The notes: generated from the letters alone by a model not told the origin. 63,080 nt of DNA from Candidatus Microgenomates bacterium (GCA_016199065.1 JACQHK010000053.1:1-63080); one strand, 5' to 3'; numbered from the stretch's first letter, positions 821 through 32,012 are shown. Made by a program: numbers and translations.

Positions 821-2929
821 TTGCTTAAGTCCAGTCAAAAATTTCTCGGATCATTGGTGGATTGTAAGGTCGCGGCTCTAAATGTCTCCCCGCTGGATAC
901 GCATAAATATCCTCCGGAAGTTGAATGGAAAATTGACCAAAGTAACAAATCAGACCTGATAAATCTGGCCCAGATGTGTAACGACGATGTGCAGATCACC
1001 GGAGTGATTATTCAACATGAATATGGTATTTTCGGCGGAAGTGAAGGAAATTCTTTGCTTTCCTTCATGCGCAACTGCAAAAAACCGATGCTCGTTACTC
1101 TTCATACAGTACTTCCTAAACCGAGTCCGAAAATGAAGCAAGTAACCGCAACAATCATTCACTCCGCTGTCACGGTCGTGGTTCTAACCAACAGTTCAAA
1201 AAAAATCATCGAAACACTCTATCCTGAATCTATAGGCAAAGTTTTTATGATTCCGCACGGAATTCATCAGGTCGCGTTTTCAACGGCGCAGGAATATAAA
1301 ATAAAACTGAAATTAGAGAACCACCTTGTTCTTTCAACCTTCGGACTGCTCAGTCGTGGCAAAGGAATTGAGTATGTCTTAAACGCCCTGCCGAAAGTTA
1401 TTAAAAAATATCCTTCGCTTCTTTATCTTATTCTGGGAGAAACCCATCCGGTAATTCGCAGACATGAAGGAGAAAAATACCGTTTCGAATTAGCAAAGAT
1501 TATTACCAAGCTAGGGCTGGAAAATCACGTCAGATTTTACGATCAATATTTTAGCCTTCCGGACCTATTTGAGTTTTTAAAAGCAACGGACGTTTATGTT
1601 TCTGCCTCTACTAACCCAAACCAGGCGGTAAGCGGAACTCTGTCTTATGCTTTAGGAACAGGAAGAACAGTCATCAGCACGGACTTTGCCCAGGCAAAGG
1701 AAATTGTCACTGCCGAAACAGGACGATTAATTCCGGTTAAAAATTCTTCAGCCTTAACCTCTGCCCTGGTTGATCTTTTAGGCGACCAAAAAAGTCTAAG
1801 AAAAATGCATCACAACGCCTACCTAAAAACCCGCATTATGCTTTGGCATAAAGTTGCCAGTGAGTATTTAAACTTACTGGAAAGAATGGTCGTTCCGGCG
1901 CTAAAAATTGATCATCTGGTTAAAATGACCGACGATTTTGGGCTCTTTCAGTTTGCATCTTTGACAATTCCTAACAAAGCTTTCGGCTATACTTTGGACG
2001 ATAATGCCAGGGCACTTGTTGTTTGCAGTTGGTTAATGAAACAAAAGTATTCGAAGGAGGTAGAAGTTTTACTTAGACTATATATCGCGTTTATTAAAAA
2101 ATGTCAGCTGGCAAACGGGTCATTTATAAACTACATCGGCTTTAAAGATAAACTCCCTACCATGCAAAACAGCAAGGAGGACTTGGAAGACACTCAGTCC
2201 CGCGCGTTGTGGGCGATGAGCGAAGTTATGACTAATAAAATTTTGGCAGATGACATCCGCAACGAAGCAAAAAAAATCTTTCTGTTGGCGCTTAAAGCAG
2301 AAGTAAAATTAAATCATTTGCGCGCCAAGGCTTATTTCATTAAATCTCTAACTCTGGCGGTCGGCGTTTTACCGGAGATGCGTACAAGACTAATAAAAAT
2401 AATTACCGACCATGCCGATTCTTTATGCACTGCCCTTGCCGATCATTCCGTCAAAAAGTGGCAGTGGTTTGAAAGTGAATTAAATTATAATAACGCTCTT
2501 CTGCCGGAAAGTTTACTGATTGCCGGAGAAATATCGGAGAACACAACGTATACTAAAAAAGGCCTCCTTTCTCTTGAGTTCCTGATCAGCAAAACCTTTT
2601 CTAAAACTTATATTCCCATTGGTCATTCGCAATGGTACAAAAATAAAGCAAAACGGAGCAACTTTGATCAACAACCAGAAGACCCGGCATCTATGATTTT
2701 AGCGTTAGTAAGAGCATACCGCCTTACAAAAGATTCGCGCTATAAAAGGCTGGCAAATAAATGTTTTAGCTGGTTTCTCGGTAACAACAGTCTGAAAAAA
2801 TCTCTGTATGACTATCAAAACGGCGGCTGCTACGATGGTTTGCACCCCGACCGGGTTAATTTAAATCAGGGCGCAGAATCATTGGTTTCCTATCTAATGT
2901 CCAGCTGTACTATTAGACAACTCAACTAA
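821..2929 (+). CDS. GT4-type (GT-B fold) glycosyltransferase fused to a ~330-aa C-terminal domain of unknown function; the true start is probably upstream of 821
   Basis: 702-aa ORF. The N-terminal half has a glycosyl transferase group 1 layout (STFGLLSRGKGIEY, LILGETHP, VSGTLSYALGTGRTVIS). The track start is a TTG. The frame stays open back to 689 and encodes IVFLSTYPPRECGIATF, typical of the N-terminus of this GT family. Confidence 0.8.
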   Translation: MLKSSQKFLGSLVDCKVAALNVSPLDTHKYPPEVEWKIDQSNKSDLINLAQMCNDDVQITGVIIQHEYGIFGGSEGNSLLSFMRNCKKPMLVTLHTVLPKPSPKMKQVTATIIHSAVTVVVLTNSSKKIIETLYPESIGKVFMIPHGIHQVAFSTAQEYKIKLKLENHLVLSTFGLLSRGKGIEYVLNALPKVIKKYPSLLYLILGETHPVIRRHEGEKYRFELAKIITKLGLENHVRFYDQYFSLPDLFEFLKATDVYVSASTNPNQAVSGTLSYALGTGRTVISTDFAQAKEIVTAETGRLIPVKNSSALTSALVDLLGDQKSLRKMHHNAYLKTRIMLWHKVASEYLNLLERMVVPALKIDHLVKMTDDFGLFQFASLTIPNKAFGYTLDDNARALVVCSWLMKQKYSKEVEVLLRLYIAFIKKCQLANGSFINYIGFKDKLPTMQNSKEDLEDTQSRALWAMSEVMTNKILADDIRNEAKKIFLLALKAEVKLNHLRAKAYFIKSLTLAVGVLPEMRTRLIKIITDHADSLCTALADHSVKKWQWFESELNYNNALLPESLLIAGEISENTTYTKKGLLSLEFLISKTFSKTYIPIGHSQWYKNKAKRSNFDQQPEDPASMILALVRAYRLTKDSRYKRLANKCFSWFLGNNSLKKSLYDYQNGGCYDGLHPDRVNLNQGAESLVSYLMSSCTIRQLN

Positions 2930-3880
2930 ATGAAGATTAAACAAATTAAAGATATTTTTCGCGATAATAATATCGCCCGATATAATATGGCGGTCTGGCA
3001 AAAATCAGGAGAAGATTCATTGTGTTTCATCGGACGCGAAGTTGCCACGCCCGGAGAAAGCGGACAGCCTGATACCGGCATTCTAAAACTATTTGAAGTA
3101 AACACCTCAGGCACTGTTATTAAGGAAAAGGTCATTTGGAAACCGATATTTGAGGGAATAAACCTTGAGGATCCCCGAGCCCTGGAGTTGCCTAATGAAA
3201 ATTTGGTCATCGGGCTTACGGCAGTACTTCGTGATACGAAAGGTGTACCGACTCCTTTTCCCGCCCTTGTCAACATCGACTCTTTTGATTCCTGGAAAAA
3301 AGAATTGCCTCCCTTTCTTATTATTGATACTTTCGGGCCAGGAAAAAATATTACACCTATTGGCAGGCATTCTTATCTTTTTCGACCGGATGCGGCAGAA
3401 TACTTCCATAAGCTTTTAGTTTTCTCCCTGCACTCACAAATTCCGGAAAAATTAGGCGACATAGAATTTCCTCTGGACCTTCCTTGGGCAAGTTGGCGAA
3501 TCGGAACGACGATGCCGCCGATCTGGTTAGCTTCCAATGAGGCACTTTTTATTATTCACGGAATTTCCCAAAAAAAGATCGACGGAAGGGAAATATACGT
3601 TTACAGTATCGGGCGGGCGAAATTAATTCGGAATAAAAACAAATTTACTGTAATGGTGTCACCAGAACCGATACTTACTCCTGATAACTTTTTAAATGAT
3701 GAGGGGTTGCCTCTCGTCGAAGAATTGCATCCTGAAAAACGCCGTGTTGTCTACTCCTGCGGTGGAGTGATTAAAAAAAGCACTCCGGAAATATTATCGC
3801 TCTACGTTAACGTAGGAGACCGGACAACTTTTGAAGTAGGATTTTCTCTAAGCGAATTGAAAAAAGGTCTTTTTGATTAA
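2930..3880 (+). CDS. GH130/DUF377-like glycosidase-related protein (beta-propeller type), tentative
   Basis: 316-aa ORF whose ATG directly abuts the TAA of the upstream glycosyltransferase. Its size and pairing with a group-1 GT resemble the known GT plus PH1107-related glycosidase gene pair. The family call is from memory only. Confidence 0.5.
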   Translation: MKIKQIKDIFRDNNIARYNMAVWQKSGEDSLCFIGREVATPGESGQPDTGILKLFEVNTSGTVIKEKVIWKPIFEGINLEDPRALELPNENLVIGLTAVLRDTKGVPTPFPALVNIDSFDSWKKELPPFLIIDTFGPGKNITPIGRHSYLFRPDAAEYFHKLLVFSLHSQIPEKLGDIEFPLDLPWASWRIGTTMPPIWLASNEALFIIHGISQKKIDGREIYVYSIGRAKLIRNKNKFTVMVSPEPILTPDNFLNDEGLPLVEELHPEKRRVVYSCGGVIKKSTPEILSLYVNVGDRTTFEVGFSLSELKKGLFD

Positions 3881-3923
3881 ACATGAGAATAGGGAAAGGA
3901 TACGGTATGAAAAATTATGAGTT

Positions 3924-4199
3924 TTATTTTCGGTATGCCGAGAGGTGCTTGTTGGAAGTCTTAATCCCTTCGTGAACGTGATACAAGGCTGCCAACAAGG
4001 CTGCTGTTAGATAGACTTCCCAAATCGGCAAATCATAGAAAGTGGCACATGGGTAGTTGGTTAAAGGAGAAACTAAGTCACAAATAGTTTGATAGGCAAA
4101 ACGATCCACGTTTAATAAATCAATTACTCCTACTAAAACGAAGAGTAAAACGAGTGTTATGAAAAAGGAGTGTTGAACAAACCATCCTTTATACGGCAT
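3924..4199 (-). CDS. Small hypothetical membrane protein
   Basis: 91-aa ORF with two clear hydrophobic helices (FFITLVLLFVLVGVIDLL; VYLTAALLAALYHV). Confidence 0.4.
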   Translation of the reverse strand: MPYKGWFVQHSFFITLVLLFVLVGVIDLLNVDRFAYQTICDLVSPLTNYPCATFYDLPIWEVYLTAALLAALYHVHEGIKTSNKHLSAYRK

Positions 4200-4321
4200 A
4201 TACTTTCATGAAAGCACTTTGAAAAACAAAATGCAAGTGTTTTGGCAATACTTCTTTAACTTTAACATTTTTGTGGTAAATTAATTGTATGATTATGGGA
4301 ATATAATCAATTTTTTTAGGG

Positions 4322-5506
4322 TTAAAAAGCTGTTTCTTTTTTAACACCTGGTCGAAGAACCTGGAAAGAGAGAAAGAAACAAGCAAGTATTAAGACTGCA
4401 CCAACAACAAAAGGTAAGGGAATAGCAATGGTAGCCACTGCTCCGCCCAACAAAGGACCAACTATCATCCCGATACTTTGATAAGAAGCATTAAGTCCCA
4501 TGATGGAACCCTGAGACTTGGCATCGGCTTCTTGGGAAAGAATCGCAGGAATTAACGTTTGAGAAATACTGTTAAATATACCGATAATTAAAGAGGCAAG
4601 AATGAAAAGACTCAAGGTACGGGAAAAATACATGATCATAAACGAGACGGAAGTTAACAGCAGTGCAATAGAAAAAGCCTTTCTCATTCCCAATAGTTTA
4701 GTAATTCGCGCTACCAAAAAAGTTTGAGAAATTAAACCGACGATACCAAAAAAAGTAAACAAAAGAGCATTTTGTTGCTCGGTGATTTTTAAAACATTCA
4801 GGGTAAAGGGTTGAAAACCATAGATCATCGCGCAAGAAAAGGCTAGGAAAAAGAGTAAAGAAATAAAGAATGTCACGCCCACATTGGGATCAAAGAGAGT
4901 CTTCGTTAATTTCGGAATGTCGATAAGTTTTCCCTTTTTAACTTCTCCCATGTGCTTGTTAGTTTCAGGAAGATAGAGATACATCAAAACAGCAGAAATT
5001 AGTGTCACTATCCCGGCAATTATAAAAGGTACGGCAGGACCAAATCCCACCGTCAAAGCAGAAACTGCCGGTCCGAAGACAAAACCAAAACTAAAGGCCG
5101 CTCCGACTAATCCAAACGCTTTGGGCCGTTCTTCAGGTTTGGTTGAATCAGAGATTACGGCAAAAACGACCGGAATATTACCCGCCGTTAGTCCATCCAG
5201 AGCCCTGGCCAAATACAAAAACCAAAAATTGGGAGCAAAAGCCATGGTGAAAAAAGATAAAGCAGTTCCTAAAATAGAAATTAATAGCAATGGCCTTCTA
5301 CCATATTTATCAGACAAACGGCCGATGATCGGTGTAGAAATAAATTGGAAAATTGAATAAGTCGCAAAAAGTAAACCGTTTTCAAAATCCGATAGTCCGT
5401 ATTTTTTAGAATACGCATATAGTATGGGGATAATAATTCCGTAGCCTAGCATATTTACCACCGCCACCAGGGAAACGATCAATAAATTTCGGTTGTTTTT
5501 TAACAT
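4322..5506 (-). CDS. MFS transporter (drug:H+ antiporter-like)
   Basis: MFS motif A GRLSDKYGRRP and about 12 predicted TM helices. The track start at 5545 lies in the loop of a perfect 12-bp hairpin, so the ATG at 5506 (MLKNNRNLL) is preferred. Confidence 0.85.
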   Translation of the reverse strand: MLKNNRNLLIVSLVAVVNMLGYGIIIPILYAYSKKYGLSDFENGLLFATYSIFQFISTPIIGRLSDKYGRRPLLLISILGTALSFFTMAFAPNFWFLYLARALDGLTAGNIPVVFAVISDSTKPEERPKAFGLVGAAFSFGFVFGPAVSALTVGFGPAVPFIIAGIVTLISAVLMYLYLPETNKHMGEVKKGKLIDIPKLTKTLFDPNVGVTFFISLLFFLAFSCAMIYGFQPFTLNVLKITEQQNALLFTFFGIVGLISQTFLVARITKLLGMRKAFSIALLLTSVSFMIMYFSRTLSLFILASLIIGIFNSISQTLIPAILSQEADAKSQGSIMGLNASYQSIGMIVGPLLGGAVATIAIPLPFVVGAVLILACFFLSFQVLRPGVKKETAF

Positions 5507-5524
5507 AATCGCCCAACGCACAAA

Positions 5525-5557
5525 TACGAGAATTTTAATTTTCATAAAATTCTCGTA
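5525..5557. promoter_or_regulatory. Perfect 12-bp inverted repeat between the DUF1059-like gene and the MFS gene (operator or terminator)
   Basis: TACGAGAATTTT-N9-AAAATTCTCGTA, read directly from the sequence. Confidence 0.45.
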
Positions 5558-5573
5558 ATGTTTAATTTAAAAT

Positions 5574-5792
5574 CTAGACTGCCACGGGTTGTAATCCTTG
5601 ATTAACCATTTGAGTTACCATTTCTGCTGTAGGAATTGGCTCTTCGGGTTTGTGATACATTTTCATATGCTCTTTAGTCATGGCTAAGTCGTTTTCGGTC
5701 ATCATCTGAATTAATTTTGCTGCCGCTTCCTCACGAGTTGCACCCTCAGTTTCCATCACCTGACCACAAGTACATGTCATGGAGAATTTCAT
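5574..5792 (-). CDS. Small Cys/His-containing protein, possibly DUF1059-like
   Basis: 72-aa ORF preceded by a strong SD (AAAGGAGGTGATAATAAATG). It has an N-terminal CxC motif and His residues. The family call is tentative. Confidence 0.45.
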   Translation of the reverse strand: MKFSMTCTCGQVMETEGATREEAAAKLIQMMTENDLAMTKEHMKMYHKPEEPIPTAEMVTQMVNQGLQPVAV

Positions 5793-5850
5793 TTATTATC
5801 ACCTCCTTTTTCTCGTCCGGAGACGAATAAGGTAGGTTTTTTTATAACAC

Positions 5851-5880
5851 TTGTCAAAGAACTGCGCAATACTCTAAAAT
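5851..5880 (+). promoter_or_regulatory. Sigma70-like promoter candidate for ORF 5916..6236
   Basis: TTGTCA-N18-TAAAAT, about 35 nt upstream of the ATG. Confidence 0.35.
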
Positions 5881-5915
5881 AGCTATGGAAGAAAATTATT
5901 ACTAATTAATTATTC

Positions 5916-6236
5916 ATGACGACCATACCATTTATTATCGTTGGTGGATTCTTGATTGGTTATCTGGTATGTCTTTTTTTTACTCATCCGAAACGCCTGA
6001 AAAATAAGCTTCCCTCCATTAACGTCGGAAGGTTATATATTGCACCCAATATTAAGATAAAAATTCGCGGTCGTTTCTTTCATCTACATCATTGGGTCCA
6101 TCTGACGATTATTTTTACAGTTATGGTTTATTTATCTCAGGATATCTTCATCACCTATCTGTTTTGGAAAGGAATAGTCCTAGGCGGTATCTCCCAGGGA
6201 TTAACCTACAAAGACCGTTTTAAATTCAGAGAATAG
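5916..6236 (+). CDS. Hypothetical membrane protein
   Basis: 106-aa ORF with three hydrophobic segments. Confidence 0.45.
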   Translation: MTTIPFIIVGGFLIGYLVCLFFTHPKRLKNKLPSINVGRLYIAPNIKIKIRGRFFHLHHWVHLTIIFTVMVYLSQDIFITYLFWKGIVLGGISQGLTYKDRFKFRE

Positions 6237-6258
6237 TTTCTGCTTCTCTAATTTTATT

Positions 6259-6906
6259 ATGCTACTTATTGCTCATCGCGGTGATAAAACTAACTATCCG
6301 GAAAATACCATTGAGGCTTTCCGTTCGGCTTTGGAAAAAGGCTCAGGCGGCATCGAATTTGATGTTCAGGTCGAAAACGGCGAGCCGATTATTGTCCATG
6401 ACTATATCAGAAACAATTCCCAACCATATCCCCGATTATCTCAGGTATTGGAAGAATTTGGCAGCCGAACCCATCTGGAAATCGAAATTAAGTCATTTAA
6501 AGTTGAGGAGTTTAAGGTAATCAGCAAAACGGTTAAAAATTTTTCTCCGAAAGATATGGAAATTACTTCCAGCATTCATCCTTTAATACCACATATTAGA
6601 GAGACCTTTCCTAAGACTTATATCGGTGAGATTTTCCCGGACAAATTATTTGAGAACTGGATGACGGAAGAATTTTTAGAAATGTTTTTTGAGGGATATC
6701 TGAAATTAACCGGAGCCAATGTTATTCACCTGCCAAGCTTTCTTTTCCAAGCGTCTGTTATTCAGTATTTGAAAAACAGAGGTTACCTCCTCCATCATCA
6801 TTTATCAACAGATGAACAAGGCGAATATAATAAATTAATAAACTTGGAAATTGATTTTGCAACTTTTGACAATATCAATTTATTGGAAAAAATAGAAATA
6901 AGATAA
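6259..6906 (+). CDS. Glycerophosphodiester phosphodiesterase family protein
   Basis: N-terminal GDPD signature IAHRGDKTNYPENTIEAFRSALEKGSGGIEFDVQ. Confidence 0.8.
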   Translation: MLLIAHRGDKTNYPENTIEAFRSALEKGSGGIEFDVQVENGEPIIVHDYIRNNSQPYPRLSQVLEEFGSRTHLEIEIKSFKVEEFKVISKTVKNFSPKDMEITSSIHPLIPHIRETFPKTYIGEIFPDKLFENWMTEEFLEMFFEGYLKLTGANVIHLPSFLFQASVIQYLKNRGYLLHHHLSTDEQGEYNKLINLEIDFATFDNINLLEKIEIR

Positions 6907-6910
6907 AAGG

Positions 6911-7504
6911 TTATTTCTTATTTGTCTGAAGATATTTATATAGTTGAAATCCCAAAATGCTTCCGACAATTTCTACGGCGTAGTATTCAATATGAGAAAC
7001 CCCAAGCCCCACACCCACTGCCGGATTAAGAATACCCGCCCCGCCTCCTAAAGCAGAAAGAGTAATGCCCAAAAGTAATGATCCTCCAACCACGAAACCT
7101 GAAATTTCATCCGGCACAGATTTATAAACTACGGCAGCAATCCCAAAAGTAAAAATTATCATTCCCAATAATTCAAATAACAATTCGGTTATAAAGATTT
7201 CTGATCCTGCTGGAAAAGGCAGATTTAGTTTTTTATGGATCAAAAAGATTAATAAACCTGCCAGTAACTGACCAATAATATATTTAATAGCCGATAACCT
7301 ATCAATTTTTTTGAGAGACCACAAACCTATGGTAACCGCAGGATTTAAATGACAACCGGAAATTCCTCCAATTGTAAAAACGAAAAGAGTTAAAACTAAC
7401 GCTGCTAAAATTGGGGTCGGAATAAAAAATTGTTGAGTTAGAGACAGAAATACCACCAAGGAAAGAATAAGAGTACCAATAAATTCGCTAAGAATTTTCT
7501 TCAT
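6911..7504 (-). CDS. MIP-family channel (aquaporin/aquaglyceroporin), short form
   Basis: Two NPA boxes (HLNPAVTIG and ILNPAVGVG) and six hydrophobic helices in 197 aa. Confidence 0.85.
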   Translation of the reverse strand: MKKILSEFIGTLILSLVVFLSLTQQFFIPTPILAALVLTLFVFTIGGISGCHLNPAVTIGLWSLKKIDRLSAIKYIIGQLLAGLLIFLIHKKLNLPFPAGSEIFITELLFELLGMIIFTFGIAAVVYKSVPDEISGFVVGGSLLLGITLSALGGGAGILNPAVGVGLGVSHIEYYAVEIVGSILGFQLYKYLQTNKK

Positions 7505-7727
7505 AGATACGAAATAAAATTAAGTAATTTTTATCTTACTATTTACTATGTTAACTAGCAATAATGGCTAATTTGGGATTTATTTAAAAATTATATGGTG
7601 GTTGTTAAAGGGTTGAATTTTATAAATGCCATTTAAAAATTCTGACTATTTTATCAACCCGGGAGATTGTCAATGTTACTGTTTTACTCTTTTCGGAAAG
7701 TTTAGGAAAACTAAGAATACAGCCAGC

Positions 7728-7752
7728 AAGCTCTTTATAACAGAGCTTTTTA
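7728..7752. terminator. Hairpin just downstream of the CsoR operon
   Basis: AAGCTCT-TTATAAC-AGAGCTT with TTTT on the plus strand and an A-tract on the minus strand. It lies about 30 nt past the stop at 7781. Confidence 0.4.
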
Positions 7753-7780
7753 TAGTTGATAATTTCTCCTTCATCCGAAA

Positions 7781-16911: not shown

Positions 16912-18294
16912 TTATTTCTTTTTAATCGTTGTCTGTGTTTTGGTATCTTCCACGTCGTATCCCATTTTTTCTATTTCGTTTCTAAGACGATCAGACTCTA
17001 TCCACTTTTTTGCTTTTCTTACCTGTTCCCTTTTCTTAACGAGTTCTTTTACCGTCTGAGGAATCTCTGTTTTGGAAAAAGTTAATAAATCCAATCCGAA
17101 TACTTCATCAAATTTTTTAATATTTACTATCTTTTCACCAGGAGCTAGTTTTTTGTCATCAACCATCTGCCAAACTACCGATAATGCCTGCGGTAGATTA
17201 AGATCGTCATTAATCGACTGTAAAAACTCAGTAGTGTATTTTTCCTCTTCTGATAAGGCTATTTTCCCTGCTTCTTGCCACTCGGTTATTTTCTCTTTTA
17301 ATCTCTCCAGCGCTCTCCGCGCACCGCTTAAGGCTTCCCAGGTAAAATTCATGGTCGTCCGGTAATGTGTGTTTAAATATAAATAGCGCAAAGACAGCAT
17401 ATCAAAGCCTTTTTTCTGTAGATCTTGTCGGGTATAAAAATTACCCAAGCTTTTACTCATTTTTTCTCTTTCAACCAGTAAATGGGCAAAGTGCACCCAG
17501 TATTTGGCAAAGGGCTTGCCCGTAGCTGCTTCACTTTGGGCAATTTCGTTAGTGTGATGAATTGGAATATGGTCAATGCCTCCGGAGTGAATATCAAAAG
17601 TCTCACCTAAATATTTCATGGCCATCGCCGAACACTCGATATGCCATCCCGGAAAACCAGTTCCCCAAGGACTTTTCCATTCCATTTGCCGTTTTGTCTC
17701 CTTGGGTGAAAACTTCCAGAGCGCAAAGTCTGTGGAATTTTTTTTGCCCGGTACGGGTTCTACCCGGGCACCTGCCAGTAAGCCTTTTTTATCCAACTTG
17801 GCCAATTTCCCGTAATCCTTAAGTTTTGCTGTATTAAAATAAATTCCGTCTTCGATTTGATAGGTAAAGCCTTTTTTCTCTAGCTCCCCTATTAAATCAA
17901 TCATTTCCTTAATGTGATCAGTTGCCTTACATATCACGCCGGGAGTTATCACGCTAAGCTGTTTTAAATTCTCAAAAAAATCTTTCGTATAAAATTGCGC
18001 GATTTCCCAAACTGATTTTCCCTCCCGCTTAGCACCCTTTTCTAACTTATCCTCACCGGTATCAGCATTACTCGTCAAATGCCCTACGTCAGTAATGTTC
18101 ATCACTCTCCTGACTTGATAACCATTAAGCATCAGTACTCTCTGCAAAAGATCATTGCCCACGTAAGTTCGGTAATTACCGATATGCTGAAAATCGTAAA
18201 CGGTAGGACCACAAGAATAAAAACCAACCTCAGGAGGATGAATTGGTTTAAATGACTCAATCTTACGGGAAAGGGTATTATAGAGTTTTAACAT
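16912..18294 (-). CDS. cysS: Cysteine--tRNA ligase
   Basis: Class I HIGH (HIGN) and KMSKS motifs, with CGPTVYD at the N-terminus. Confidence 0.95.
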   Translation of the reverse strand: MLKLYNTLSRKIESFKPIHPPEVGFYSCGPTVYDFQHIGNYRTYVGNDLLQRVLMLNGYQVRRVMNITDVGHLTSNADTGEDKLEKGAKREGKSVWEIAQFYTKDFFENLKQLSVITPGVICKATDHIKEMIDLIGELEKKGFTYQIEDGIYFNTAKLKDYGKLAKLDKKGLLAGARVEPVPGKKNSTDFALWKFSPKETKRQMEWKSPWGTGFPGWHIECSAMAMKYLGETFDIHSGGIDHIPIHHTNEIAQSEAATGKPFAKYWVHFAHLLVEREKMSKSLGNFYTRQDLQKKGFDMLSLRYLYLNTHYRTTMNFTWEALSGARRALERLKEKITEWQEAGKIALSEEEKYTTEFLQSINDDLNLPQALSVVWQMVDDKKLAPGEKIVNIKKFDEVFGLDLLTFSKTEIPQTVKELVKKREQVRKAKKWIESDRLRNEIEKMGYDVEDTKTQTTIKKK

Positions 18295-18341: not shown

Positions 18342-18432
18342 TTATATACTCATCTTACTCCGGTTTGCAGCTCGTCAGAGCGAAAAAGCGGATTAGATGC
18401 TTGCCTGCGCAAGCAGGAGTATATACTGAGAA
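18342..18432 (-). promoter_or_regulatory. Conserved structured element, copy A (5' of cysS)
   Basis: Shares the blocks TCAGTATA, CATCTAATCC and CGGAGTAAGATG with 30914..31020. Two hairpins sit at the same positions in both copies but with different sequences. Confidence 0.45.
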
Positions 18433-18453
18433 ACTCAGGTTACAAACCTGAGT
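18431..18453 (-). terminator. Hairpin terminator after the CofE-like gene
   Basis: AACTCAGG-TTTGTAA-CCTGAGTT followed by TCTC on the minus strand. Confidence 0.5.
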
Positions 18454-18469
18454 TATCGAAGTATTGATA

Positions 18470-28505: not shown

Positions 28506-30812
28506 TTACTCGGGTGGCCAGCGATTAATTATTACCACCTCATCGTTTTCGTGTGAACAATCAACACAGTAAGCACTAAAAGCATCTTTTACGACAATAT
28601 GTTCCTGTTCTTCAATGTTATCGGTTTGTCCGGACTTGGCGGGTTTGTTTACAGTTTTATCAATCAGGATTTTTTTCTTACTATCATCTACTTCTTTAGG
28701 CTCCGTTCCTTTTATAAAATACTCTGTCCGCGTCGAACAACCGCTTTCTCCCGGAAGCTTACCGGACAACGAACAGATTGTTATACCAACGATATCTGAA
28801 GGCATTAACGGCCACTCGTCGGGCTGATCCTTTAAAACGTATGTCATAATTTTATTCCAAATCGGTGCGGCCCCGGTTATTCCTGAGGAAAGATAAGGAT
28901 GCATAGGAGAGTTATCATTATTCCCGACCCAAACCACTGTCAAAAAAGACGGTGTATAACCAATTGTCCAGTTGTCTCTCTTGTCATCTGTTGTTCCTGT
29001 TTTTACCGAAACAGCCTGATGTTTGGGAATTCGCAGCAGGGAATTTTCGCCAAACGCTCCTGCCCGGGCGTTATTATCAAGCAGAATATGAGAAATAAGA
29101 AAAGTCACATTAAAGGGCAACACGCGTGGTCCAGCAATGTCTAGTAAGGAATGCTTCTTCTTTTTCTCCCAATTAATAACTTCCTTATTCTCTTCTAAAA
29201 TGTTTCCCTTAAAATCGGTAATTTTAAGAATAGGATTAAGATCTTTTCTAATACCGCTATTGGCAAAAACACCAAAAGCAGTTGCCATCTCTGTCATGCG
29301 TACTTCTCCCCCTCCCAATGTCAAAGATAAACCATAACGACTTTCGTCTTTAAAAGTAGAAATTCCCATTGCCGAAGCAGTAGCAACCATATCATGAACT
29401 GAATTTAGCGCCAACATTTTAACTGCAGGAATATTTAGAGAATTACCTAGAGCAAAACGAAGCTGCACTGGTCCGCGAAAATGACCATCGTAATTAACCG
29501 GGCAATAAGCTTTTTGACCAATAATGTTAGCAAAACAAGTTTTGGTATCAATAAAAACCGTTCCGGGGGTGTAGCCCTTCAATAACCCAACTGCATAATT
29601 AATGGGTTTAATGGCCGAACCCGGTTGACGTTCGGCAAGCGTAACATTAACATTTCCATCATGTTCTGTATCAAAATAATCCCGCGAGCCTACCATGGCT
29701 AAAATTTCTCCGGTGGGGGGTTTAATTACCAAAGCAGCACCGTTGCCTACTTTTAAATTTTTAAGCTTTGCGACCTCAGAAGCAACTGTTTCCTGGGCAA
29801 AATTTTGAATATTCCAGTCCAAAGTAGTTGTAACGCGCAAACCACCTCTTTCCACCAAATTAGAACCATACTTTTGCGTCACTAGCTCTTTGATGTATAA
29901 CACGAAATGGGCCGCTTTGATTTGTTCTTTCTGTAAATTAAATTTTAATGGTTCTCTTAAAGCCCTCTCTGCTTCTTCTTTGCTTATGTAATGATCTTCC
30001 ACCATTCTTTTTAACACGCCCTCCTGGCGGCGCTTTGCCAAATCGGGACGCGAGCCGAATGGCGAATAAAGACTCGGCGCCACAGGTAAACCTGCTAAGA
30101 GTGCACTTTCTGCCAGATTAAGCTGGGACGCCTTTTTACCGAAATACCTCTGGGCCGCAGCCTCTACCCCCCAAGCAGTACCTCCGTAAGGAACCTGGTT
30201 TAAATATAATTCCAGAATTTTGTCCTTACCATAAAGAGTTTCTACTAAAACCGCCAGAATTATCTCTTTTATTTTTCTCGTAACGGTCCTTTCCGGTGTA
30301 AGTAGAGCGTTTTTAACTAGCTGTTGGGTAATGGTTGATCCACCCTGCAGCTTGCGATAGATAATCATATCTTTTACGGCACGGATTACCCCTCCGATCA
30401 GGTTTACCCCTTTGTGTTTATAAAAATCTTTATCTTCAATGGCAATCGTGGCATTTTTCAGATTTTGGGGAATTTGTGATAAAGGGACTAAAGTTCTATT
30501 CTGATCAGCATAAATTTCATAAAGTAAAACTTGGTTTCTGTCAAAAATCTTGGTGGTTTGAGAAGGCGGTTGGTTAACTAATTTCTGAACCGAAGGTAAA
30601 TCTTTTAAAATTAACCAATAAAAACTAAGGACGAAAACGGTAATTAAGACCAGGGCCAGGGAATATTTTTGTAAAAAGGAAAAAAATCTTTGCCGAAAAA
30701 TGACCACGAAGGGCTTTTGATTAATATCGCTTTTACCGCTTATATTTCGGCTGGTAACAGTAGAAACTTTTTGTTTTTTATTTCGGGACTTTGGCATGTG
30801 GTAATTATACAA
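28506..30812 (-). CDS. Class A penicillin-binding protein (PBP1A-type), paralog 2
   Basis: EDKDFYKHKGVN, GGSTITQQL, SAIKP, SLN and KTGTT. It shares NDNSPMHPYLSSGITGAAPIW with the downstream paralog. Confidence 0.9.
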   Translation of the reverse strand: MYNYHMPKSRNKKQKVSTVTSRNISGKSDINQKPFVVIFRQRFFSFLQKYSLALVLITVFVLSFYWLILKDLPSVQKLVNQPPSQTTKIFDRNQVLLYEIYADQNRTLVPLSQIPQNLKNATIAIEDKDFYKHKGVNLIGGVIRAVKDMIIYRKLQGGSTITQQLVKNALLTPERTVTRKIKEIILAVLVETLYGKDKILELYLNQVPYGGTAWGVEAAAQRYFGKKASQLNLAESALLAGLPVAPSLYSPFGSRPDLAKRRQEGVLKRMVEDHYISKEEAERALREPLKFNLQKEQIKAAHFVLYIKELVTQKYGSNLVERGGLRVTTTLDWNIQNFAQETVASEVAKLKNLKVGNGAALVIKPPTGEILAMVGSRDYFDTEHDGNVNVTLAERQPGSAIKPINYAVGLLKGYTPGTVFIDTKTCFANIIGQKAYCPVNYDGHFRGPVQLRFALGNSLNIPAVKMLALNSVHDMVATASAMGISTFKDESRYGLSLTLGGGEVRMTEMATAFGVFANSGIRKDLNPILKITDFKGNILEENKEVINWEKKKKHSLLDIAGPRVLPFNVTFLISHILLDNNARAGAFGENSLLRIPKHQAVSVKTGTTDDKRDNWTIGYTPSFLTVVWVGNNDNSPMHPYLSSGITGAAPIWNKIMTYVLKDQPDEWPLMPSDIVGITICSLSGKLPGESGCSTRTEYFIKGTEPKEVDDSKKKILIDKTVNKPAKSGQTDNIEEQEHIVVKDAFSAYCVDCSHENDEVVIINRWPPE

Positions 30813-30913
30813 AATTGCCTACGGCCGGTCGAGTAAGGCTTTATTAAATTAGAGCTTTCTTTCCAAAAACGAAAAATAGTTCTATACTTCAATAACTCAC
30901 TTTTACAAATGAT

Positions 30914-31020
30914 TTTTCAGTATAAACCCTTCAGAGCGAACCTCTTCAGGATGAACTCATCTAATCCTCTTTTCACCCCGCTCAGCGGGGTTTCAAATCG
31001 GAGTAAGATGGGTGTACAAT
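30914..31020 (+). promoter_or_regulatory. Conserved structured element, copy B (5' of the CvpA-CAP gene)
   Basis: TCAGTATA, hairpin, CATCTAATCC, hairpin CCCCGC-TCA-GCGGGG, then CGGAGTAAGATG. The order matches the minus-strand element at 18342..18432. Confidence 0.45.
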
Positions 31021-31028
31021 AAAATACA

Positions 31029-32012
31029 ATGTTCGGAGTTAATCTTCCCTTTCTTCATGGTAACTGGATTGATTTGATCATTATTATCATTTTATTCTGG
31101 TTTTTCTGGGAAGGCATTGGTAAGGGTTTTATAACTGGGATTGTCGACTTATCGGCTCTCTTTGCTTCTTCTCTAATCGCCTTAAAAACGTATTGGGTAT
31201 TTTCCTTTCTTTTAGTGGGTAATTTTTCTTTACCCAAAGGAATTTCTGATGCGGTGGGTTTTCTGTTAGCCGGAATTATCGGAGAGGCTCTTTTTACCAC
31301 GGCTGCTAATTTTATAATTAGAAGGATTCCCCAAAGTTTCTTTAGTTCAAGAATAGAGAAAACACTAGGATTCATTCCCTCTTTTTTAAATGGTCTTCTG
31401 TTGGTGGCCTTTTTCTTAACCGTTTTATTAGCCCTACCAATTAATCCTGCCCTTAAATCGGCTATCATTTCTTCTAAAATAGGTTCGCCGATCGTCTTAA
31501 AAACTCAAGGTTTTGAAAGAACTTTAAATAATGTTTTTGGCGGGGCGATAAACGATACTCTAAATTTTTTAACAGTTAATAAAGATGACGAAAATATCGA
31601 TTTGCGTTTCATTGCAAAAAAGTTTACCGTTGATAATGTCTCAGAAGAACAAATGTGGTCTTTAATCAATCAGGAACGGAAAAAAATAAATTTACCTCCC
31701 TTATCTTCCGATGCAAATCTGCAAACTTTAGCCCGAGAACACGCTCAGGACATGTTAACCAAAGGTTATTTTTCACATAATACACCAGAAGGGCTTACCC
31801 CTTTTGATAGAATGAAAAATAAAAATATTAACTATCAGGCGGCGGGAGAAAATTTGGCTTTTGCACCTAACGTGGAGATTGCCCACGTAGGCCTGATGAA
31901 CAGTCCCGGACACCGAAAAAATATTTTAAATCAGGATTTTGGAAAGGTAGGGATAGGAGTAATTGACGCCGGCGTTTATGGAAAAATGTTTGTTCAGGAG
32001 TTTACTAACTGA
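31029..32012 (+). CDS. CvpA-family membrane domain fused to a CAP/SCP (YkwD-like) domain
   Basis: The N-terminal four-TM segment is CvpA-like (WIDLIIIIILFWFFWEGIGKGFI). The C-terminal REHAQDMLTKGYFSHNTPEG, GENLAF and MNSPGHRKNIL are CAP-domain motifs. Confidence 0.75.
   Translation: MFGVNLPFLHGNWIDLIIIIILFWFFWEGIGKGFITGIVDLSALFASSLIALKTYWVFSFLLVGNFSLPKGISDAVGFLLAGIIGEALFTTAANFIIRRIPQSFFSSRIEKTLGFIPSFLNGLLLVAFFLTVLLALPINPALKSAIISSKIGSPIVLKTQGFERTLNNVFGGAINDTLNFLTVNKDDENIDLRFIAKKFTVDNVSEEQMWSLINQERKKINLPPLSSDANLQTLAREHAQDMLTKGYFSHNTPEGLTPFDRMKNKNINYQAAGENLAFAPNVEIAHVGLMNSPGHRKNILNQDFGKVGIGVIDAGVYGKMFVQEFTN

Follow-up and report, generated by a model that had tools for sequence, protein, structure and literature searches.

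A dispersed modular palindromic repeat of Microgenomates and its putative role as a source of promoters for leaderless genes

The sequence block CGGAGTAAGATG precedes two genes in a 63,080-nt stretch of DNA from a Candidatus Microgenomates bacterium (JACQHK010000053.1:1-63080, called the window below): cysS and a gene coding for a CvpA and CAP domain protein (cvpA-CAP). It has exactly two matches in the window, at 30999-31010 (+, copy B, in front of cvpA-CAP) and 18351-18362 (-, copy A, in front of cysS), against 0.12 expected from shuffled sequence. What does this block do for the two genes? According to the original prediction, it could combine a Shine-Dalgarno (SD)-like GGAG and an ATG which open a mini-ORF and are sequestered by pairing with an upstream sequence, so that translation of the main gene is switched. 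Alternatively, it could lie inside a sigma70 promoter giving copy B a leaderless mRNA, with a hairpin and TTT terminating a separate small transcript further upstream. The source genome (G000), which belongs to the CPR, comprises 892,751 bp (0.89 Mb) in 62 contigs.

Two copies of a conserved block upstream of cysS and cvpA-CAP

All sequence features on which these proposals were built are present. CATCTAATCC, the presumed pairing partner, is located at 30958-30967 (+) and 18390-18399 (-), which is 41 nt 5' of CGGAGTAAGATG in both copies. The pairing of CATCT with AGATG and of TCC with GGA around an apical hairpin appears in the predicted fold of either copy (fold z-scores of the two copies are -2.5 and -4.8), and the CCCCGC/GCGGGG hairpin of copy B occupies 30976-30990. 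The mini-ORF reads MGVQ-stop in copy B (31008-31022), its stop being 6 nt 5' of the ATG at 31029, and MSI-stop in copy A. The promoter-like TTCAAA-17-TACAAT of copy B (30992-31020) was recovered by a promoter scan, and TGCAAA-17-TATAAT of copy A (18369-18341, -) was read directly from the sequence. The upstream neighbours of the two copies code for a class A PBP and a CofE-like ligase; a search for tRNA and tmRNA genes found none in the window. The features discussed in this work are the following.

30883-30924 (+): module M1 of copy B, a long imperfect hairpin from TATACT to CAGTATA (nhmmer family match 30883-31018, alignment, fold)
30925-30954 (+): optional middle hairpin of copy B, common only to its sister copy on contig C58 (absent or different in other copies of the alignment; fold)
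30955-31018 (+): module M2 of copy B, with the arms (ACT)CATCTAATCC and GGAGTAAGATG(GGT), holding the block in question (match to covariance model R1 at 30952-31018, 61.6 bits; covariation)
30976-30990 (+): apical hairpin of M2, CCCCGC-TCA-GCGGGG, variable in sequence and length with constant pairing (UA/CG and GC/AU exchanges in columns 27-43 of alignment A2); not terminator-like
30992-30997 (+): -35-like hexamer TTCAAA, TGCAAA or TGTAAA in most copies (promoter scan; CAAA columns invariant in A2)
30999-31010 (+): CGGAGTAAGATG, which forms the 3' arm of the M2 stem and fills most of the putative promoter spacer, not an SD with a start codon (ATG and GGAG are replaced in other genomes, mostly with compensation)
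31008-31022 (+): mini-ORF MGVQ-stop, without conservation in the family (3 to >30 codons among the copies of this genome)
31015-31020 (+): -10-like hexamer TACAAT, its last T 9 nt before the A of the start codon (promoter scan; genome-wide hexamer peaks ending at -7, -9 and -10)
31029-32012 (+): gene of the CvpA (Colicin_V) and CAP domain protein, 327 aa (Pfam PF02674, PF00188)
18422-18464 (-): module M1 of copy A, with a promoter-like TTGTAA-16-TATACT of its own (alignment, nhmmer; promoter scan 18445-18418)
18343-18405 (-): module M2 of copy A, with TGCAAA (18369-18364), a 17-nt spacer and TATAAT (18346-18341) (R1 match, 79.5 bits; sequence)
16912-18294 (-): cysS, starting 46 nt after the TATAAT of copy A (Pfam PF01406, PF23493)
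30795-30832 (-): promoter-like site of the divergent PBP1A gene, TCGACC-17-TATAAT-6 nt-ATG (ATG at 30797-30795), outside the repeat (promoter scan)

The block is part of a dispersed modular repeat

The first sign of a repeat family came from copy B itself, which gave many further matches when used as a query against its own genome. Iterated nhmmer searches place the repeat of about 130 bases, to which copies A and B belong, at about 24 loci of this genome, and the covariance model R1, which was built on M2, has 22 matches there. Seven of the approximately 24 loci are located at contig ends, as can be expected of repeats that break assemblies. Since both copies are members of such a family, their shared invariant block reflects repeat identity and not conservation of a gene-specific leader.

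The alignment shows a fixed order of modules: hairpin M1, an optional middle hairpin of variable sequence, and hairpin M2. M1-only, M2-only, M1-M2 and M1-middle-M2 combinations are all found. M1 is a long hairpin with the consensus TATACTTCGATAACTCAGG-TTTGTAA-CCTGAGTTTCTCAGTATA and a symmetric layout, TATAC-N13-TTGCAA-N13-GTATA; as its loop hexamer is self-complementary, M1 resembles a promoter in both directions. The consensus of M2 is (ACT)CATCTAATCCGCTTTTTCG, an apical hairpin (CCCCGCTTAGCGGGG or CTCTGACGAG) and CTGCAAACCGGAGTAAGATGAGTATA. The 3' halves of the two modules are alike (TTTGTAACCTGAGT...AGTATA in M1 and CTGCAAACCGGAGT...AGTATA in M2), so the element appears to consist of two copies of a single palindromic unit that have diverged. 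The family is thus a dispersed modular palindromic repeat of Microgenomates.

The closest relative of copy B within the genome is its C58 sister. The two are 88% identical, and the identity includes the -10 hexamer and the four A's that follow it. A segmental duplication was considered as the source of this likeness and rejected, because the proteins encoded downstream are unrelated.

Two further loci have an unusual layout. The one at G000:C22:17784-17967 consists of two back-to-back M2 units around a shared M1-like centre, the units being directed each at one of two divergent genes, whose starts are at distances of 69 and 45 nt. At G000:C37:738-800, a 279-aa ORF on the opposite strand (743-1582, -) terminates within the repeat; if this ORF is real, its last 19 or so codons would be repeat-derived.

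The repeat matches no Rfam family. No Rfam covariance model reached its gathering score in the window, including the T-box model, which was of interest given cysS downstream. Around both copies only chance-level matches (E>0.5) were seen, and five copies taken from other genomes gave no match. A T-box or another riboswitch in front of cysS was therefore rejected.

Distribution of the repeat and its absence from orthologous loci

R1 matches were found in 9 of the 151 sampled genomes of the class, 1-33 per genome, with a patchy distribution. A pattern scan of species-representative genomes located the repeat in Candidatus Gottesmanbacteria, Candidatus Roizmanbacteria, one MAG labelled 'Microgenomates group' and one WWE3 MAG. 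It also occurs in twelve TPA_asm MAG records titled 'uncultured Gammaproteobacteria bacterium' (L077, L078, L079, L089, L099, L116, L119, L122, L123, L127, L141 and L142). Two sequences, CAZUOM010000002.1 (G100:C2) and CAYIFB010000011.1 (G119:C11), belong to the class of the window, and their 'Gammaproteobacteria' titles look wrong. So few matches were obtained in non-CPR records and viral contigs that they can be ascribed to chance. Carriage by phages was rejected as well: all nine pattern matches in viral contigs failed R1 and were attributed to chance.

The orthologous cvpA-CAP (57-60% identity) and cysS (66%) loci of genomes from the same family have no R1 match. The region upstream of glmS contains the element in G002, and lacks it in G003, a member of the same genus, and in G001. 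At one Gottesmanbacteria locus the element is present in two species and missing from a third. Such presence and absence at orthologous sites implies that gain and loss of the element take place at individual loci, and that it is not a leader belonging to cysS or cvpA. A cvpA-CAP orthologue without the repeat (L176, G002:C44) has a TAAAAT of its own, with its end 7 nt before the start codon ATG; a native leaderless promoter of cvpA-CAP seems to have been replaced by the repeat in G000.

A local hot spot was found in a Roizmanbacteria contig (L133, MGAN01000006.1), where four M2 copies lie within 6 kb (2085-7763) and give five R1 matches, since one of them also matches on the reverse strand. 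This cluster was considered as a possible autonomous element and rejected: the genes between the copies code for MreB, a WecG-type glycosyltransferase and other housekeeping functions.

Target-site duplications were also looked for. In the Correia elements of Neisseria the duplicated target is TA. All copies of our repeat begin with TATAC and end with GTATA, and the empty orthologous sites are too diverged to align. As the ends themselves are TATAC/GTATA, a TA duplication would be indistinguishable from them.

Pairing in the M2 stem is conserved

If GGAG and ATG served translation, they would be expected to persist in homologous copies, and neither does: ATT, ATA, ACG or ATC stands in place of ATG, and AGAG, TGAG or AGCG in place of GGAG, nearly always with a matching change in the 5' arm, which leaves a sequestered SD and start codon without support. 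The approximately 30 near-identical copies of G039 have AATCT...AGATT and TCTG...CAGA; G038 has TATCT...AGATA, and ATA is likewise found in several Roizmanbacteria and Gottesmanbacteria copies. The corresponding pairs are CGTCT...AGACG in G023 and GATCT...AGATC (ATG to ATC) in the Gottesmanbacteria copy L131, while G002 and G100 have TCAG...CTGA in place of TCCG...CGGA. The GGAG variants seen in other genomes (AGAG, TGAG, AGCG and GACG) are accompanied by compensation. A few copies are uncompensated, with AGATA opposite an unchanged CATCT, which gives a C.A mismatch.

In an alignment of 21 diverse copies, 88.9% of the cells in paired columns can pair, eight pairs show double changes, and none of 500 shuffles reaches the observed covariation score; shifting the partner columns by one reduces pairing to less than 50%. 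For 70 model-aligned matches, the values are 91.7% and 10 pairs with double changes, in an alignment that is itself fitted to the model and in a set of genome-contig loci that includes a few reverse-strand matches of the same copies. Covariation is visible even among copies inside one genome. The M2 hairpin is thus maintained by selection for pairing, GGAG and ATG behave as stem positions, and the hairpin does not hide a ribosome-binding site.

Translation initiation signals in the source genome

Neither cysS nor cvpA-CAP has an SD of its own, as was originally remarked. The remark is correct, but it is of no use as a clue: SD-like motifs precede 12.9% of ATG starts and 11.3% of internal ATGs in G000, so the missing SD is the norm in this genome. 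The G content at positions -14 to -5 of starts is flat. The 3' end of 16S rRNA retains CCTCCT and ends in GGATCACCTCCTTTCT (G000:C26, ~28-80). TAnnnT hexamers with at least five of six matches to TATAAT end at position -7 of 74 per 1000 ATG starts and of only 3 per 1000 internal ATGs, with smaller peaks at -9 and -10 of starts, and T occupies position -1 at 57% of starts. From these statistics, G000 looks largely SD-independent and rich in leaderless genes, and leaderless initiation appears to be a common mode in it. Promoters of leaderless mRNAs with the -10 element about 7 nt before the start codon are known from Actinobacteria, Deinococcus and archaea. Our literature search for leaderless genes of CPR bacteria or palindromic repeats of Microgenomates found nothing specific.

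A textbook case of a leaderless layout is the class A PBP gene that diverges from copy B. Its ATG (30797-30795) is in frame with TTG 30812, the listed start of the ORF. Since this TTG is immediately adjacent to the -10 hexamer (30809-30804), translation probably starts at the ATG.

A putative promoter at the edge of the repeat

The reading that we favour, and hold to be probable on sequence and comparative grounds, is that the block lies in M2 of the dispersed repeat, whose 3' arm supplies a sigma70-type promoter and, in copy B, a leaderless cvpA-CAP mRNA. GGAG...AGATG would then be the 3' arm of the M2 stem and, simultaneously, the 17-nt spacer of the promoter, with T(G/T)CAAA as the -35 element and, as the -10 element, TAnAAT, which is located at the 3' edge of the repeat or straddles it. 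In copy B, RNA polymerase would start at the ATG at 31029 or 1-2 nt before it, yielding a cvpA-CAP mRNA that is leaderless or has a leader of 1-2 nt, while cysS, transcribed from the same promoter in copy A, would have a leader of about 40 nt. An mRNA that starts 3' of the -10 hexamer at 31015-31020 would not contain the block. The promoter half of the original prediction holds at the level of sequence and comparison; the start site itself is a predicted one.

The best surviving alternative, which we regard as rather unlikely, is an element of the REP, MITE or BOX type, mobile or structural, that carries no promoter. Its hairpins would be needed for transposition, or for mRNA processing or stabilisation on read-through, the resemblance to -35 and -10 elements would be incidental to its AT-rich TATA ends, and transcription of the neighbouring genes would depend on other promoters. 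The patchy distribution and variable copy number, the presence and absence at orthologous loci, the near-identity of copies within a genome and the structure kept through covariation can all be expected of such an element. The following observations bear on the choice between a promoter and a promoter-less element.

The spacing favours a promoter. Homologous copies were compared to see whether the mini-ORF or the spacing is conserved: the length and the stop of the mini-ORF vary, and the distance from T(G/T)CAAA to GTATA is constant in all aligned copies. The CAAA is invariant too, but it pairs with an equally invariant TTT, and only half of the -10 hexamer lies within the repeat. The other half comes from the flank. 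Among 140 copies with unique flanks, the positions following GGTATA are biased to A at n6 (51%) and T at n8 (46%; p=0.004), which completes TAnAwT 17 nt after TGCAAA. This bias counts against a promoter-less element, although a preference for certain insertion sites, or a repeat that extends slightly further, could also account for it in place of selection for a -10.

The position of the hexamers relative to start codons fits the genome-wide peak. They end at -9 in copy B (TACAAT), at -10 in its C58 sister (TATAAT), which precedes an unrelated ABC ATPase gene, and at -7 in the C25 copy (TATAAG); in none of these three is there space for a further -10 between the repeat and the start codon, which is difficult to reconcile with neighbouring genes using other promoters. 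The same is true for two tRNA genes, which have no use for translation signals and whose only visible upstream promoter-like sequence is a repeat unit: tRNA-Ile (G000:C14:60-215) begins 14 nt after TGTAAA-17-TACAAT of an M2 unit, and tRNA-Thr (G000:C17:5438-5535) 10 nt after TATAAT of a reversed M1 unit. The start of tRNA-Thr is placed at 5532 by ARAGORN, and a tRNA-like 5' end, GCCTGGGTAGTTTAGTGG, has its first base some 32 nt before this position; an intron may account for the discrepancy, or the boundary may have been mis-called.

In the comparison across genomes, 42 of 60 copies have a gene start on their M2 side (p=0.003 against one half); for the M1 side this holds for 36 of 61 copies. 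Such a bias towards gene starts also counts against an element without a promoter. The remaining 18 M2 sides (about 30%) face a gene end, as a promoter-less element would allow, so promoter use cannot be the role of every copy. Short distances between the repeat and the gene occur on the gene-end side as well. The -35-like hexamer is weak, with three or four of six positions matching TTGACA, and the TGCAAA of copy A is below the threshold of the scan. Some downstream genes, such as the one next to the C39 copy and glmS of G002, carry a TATAAT of their own between the repeat and the start, again in line with an element that has no promoter. Promoter activity is thus probable for some of the copies, not all.

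The proposed terminator of a small upstream transcript is not supported. No terminator-like site was detected in either copy, and the apical hairpin is followed in most copies by CTGCAAA and not by a T run.

Search for a transposase partner

A mobile element without a promoter would be easier to accept if a transposase accompanied it, and none was found, neither a Y1_Tnp gene next to the repeat nor a DDE_3 gene. Within about 1 kb of 11 Y1_Tnp-like genes there is no R1 match (E<=1) and no nhmmer match (E<=10). PF01797 (Y1_Tnp) is present in 101 of the 151 genomes of the class and the repeat in 9. A RAYT/IS200-type partner was rejected on these grounds, as Y1_Tnp-like genes are common and neither adjacent to nor co-distributed with the repeat. 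The one strong IS200-type gene of G039 is flanked by unrelated hairpins. An IS630/Tc1-type partner with a DDE_3 domain was rejected too, there being none in five repeat-bearing genomes.

The Y1_Tnp matches include ORFs of about 210-260 aa with a weak C-terminal match, which are found in 101 of the 151 genomes, often several in each (e.g., G039:C18:4064-4384 and G100:C1:109327-109599). G000 has a single sub-threshold Y1_Tnp match, at a contig end (C5:11334-11528).

Possible reasons for hairpin conservation

Several unpaired bases of M2 are strongly conserved across genomes: AA opposite GTA, TTTTTCG and CTGCAAA. Together with the apical hairpin, which varies and yet stays paired, and with covariation inside one genome, this points to recognition of a folded single strand and not of a duplex operator. 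The likeliest reason for the conservation of the hairpin is that spread or maintenance of the repeat needs a folded single strand, either DNA or RNA. The element is asymmetric, forward R1 scores being about 40 bits above reverse ones; the counts of G.U and A.C appositions (20 vs 10) do not clearly favour one strand as the functional one.

The same conserved loops, asymmetry and within-genome covariation would be expected if M2, alone or with M1, were a structured nucleic acid bound by a dedicated protein, the 20 or so genes adjacent to copies forming a co-regulated set. M2 could then be an operator-like hairpin over the -35 and spacer, or a 5'-terminal stem-loop of an RNA transcribed from the M1 promoter TTGCAA-16-TATACY; indeed, TTGTAA-16-TATACT of M1 would start an RNA at the foot of M2. 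This is improbable in our opinion: the element matches no Rfam family, it is absent from orthologous loci and from most related genomes, the excess of G.U over A.C indicates no clear strand, and no candidate binding protein was identified.

We can also speculate that the M2 hairpin is a working structural switch over the -35 and spacer, in which transcription is gated by a supercoiling-dependent cruciform or by a protein on the AA/GTA and TTTTTCG loops. We consider this doubtful. If it were true, the repeat would be a portable cassette of co-regulated promoters for leaderless genes in SD-poor CPR bacteria.

Finally, a translational switch in which GGAG and AUG open a 3-4 codon mini-ORF occluded by CATCTAATCC is barely credible, even though GGAG-N4-ATG and the pairing occur in every copy of this genome and the stop of copy B is so close to the main ATG, because both motifs are replaced elsewhere with nearly universal compensation in the opposite arm, the mini-ORFs of this genome range from MSI-stop, MGVQ-stop, MGIE-stop and MSIN-stop through 7, 10, 12 and 15 aa to more than 30 aa, one of them extending into a tRNA gene, the main start follows at distances between 8 and 107 nt, some copies point at gene ends, and SD motifs are not enriched in the genome.

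Relation to known repeats and significance

Returning to the favoured reading, that of a dispersed repeat with a putative promoter at its edge, the element is of an ordinary kind and the lineage is what is new, comparable elements being known in Neisseria, streptococci and enterobacteria. Correia elements of Neisseria (CREE/NEMIS) are small dispersed inverted-repeat elements which form RNA hairpins and, in combination with flanking sequence, can give rise to promoters at their ends (PMC2649163). Like these elements of about 100-155 bp, the repeat is small, dispersed, intergenic, hairpin-forming and present or absent at orthologous sites. It also shares with CREE an outward-promoter geometry, with TATA-type ends and an internal -35-like hexamer. 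There is no sequence relation, as the core ends CCGGTACGG and TCAGGACAA of CREE are absent from the repeat. The architecture also differs, since CREE has one pair of 26-bp terminal repeats around a core and our repeat consists of two tandem hairpin units, and so does the host, which is a CPR lineage with leaderless genes.

In Streptococcus pneumoniae, BOX elements, built as boxA-boxB(n)-boxC, were reported to affect downstream expression (PMC3049150). The repeat resembles them in being modular, with a fixed order, an optional and variable middle, single-module partial copies and predicted stem-loops. Unlike in BOX, where boxA pairs with boxC, each module is a hairpin of its own; the middle module is not multiplied in tandem, and host and sequence are different. 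With REP, BIME and REPIN elements the repeat shares short imperfect palindromes, compensatory pairing and many intergenic copies, and its conserved bulges suggest recognition of a folded single strand, as for REP and REPIN. Unlike those elements with their RAYT, no copy is located beside any Y1_Tnp-like gene examined, and there is no GTAG-type head, the ends being TATAC/GTATA.

Copy B, its C58 sister and the C25 copy, with hexamers that end 7-10 nt before the ATG in agreement with the genome-wide peak, resemble promoters of leaderless mRNAs. Unlike native leaderless promoters, these would be delivered by a repeat, and leaderless initiation in this lineage is suggested by sequence statistics.

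Two apparent riboregulator leaders can thus be dropped from the list of candidates, and compensatory changes between two copies of a repeat can be seen to mimic a conserved RNA switch. A repeat family is described for Microgenomates, whose promoters are little known, and the repeat could be used as an off-the-shelf promoter in studies of CPR genes. If the promoter borne by the repeat is confirmed, small mobile palindromes would be one way in which these reduced genomes rewire their expression.
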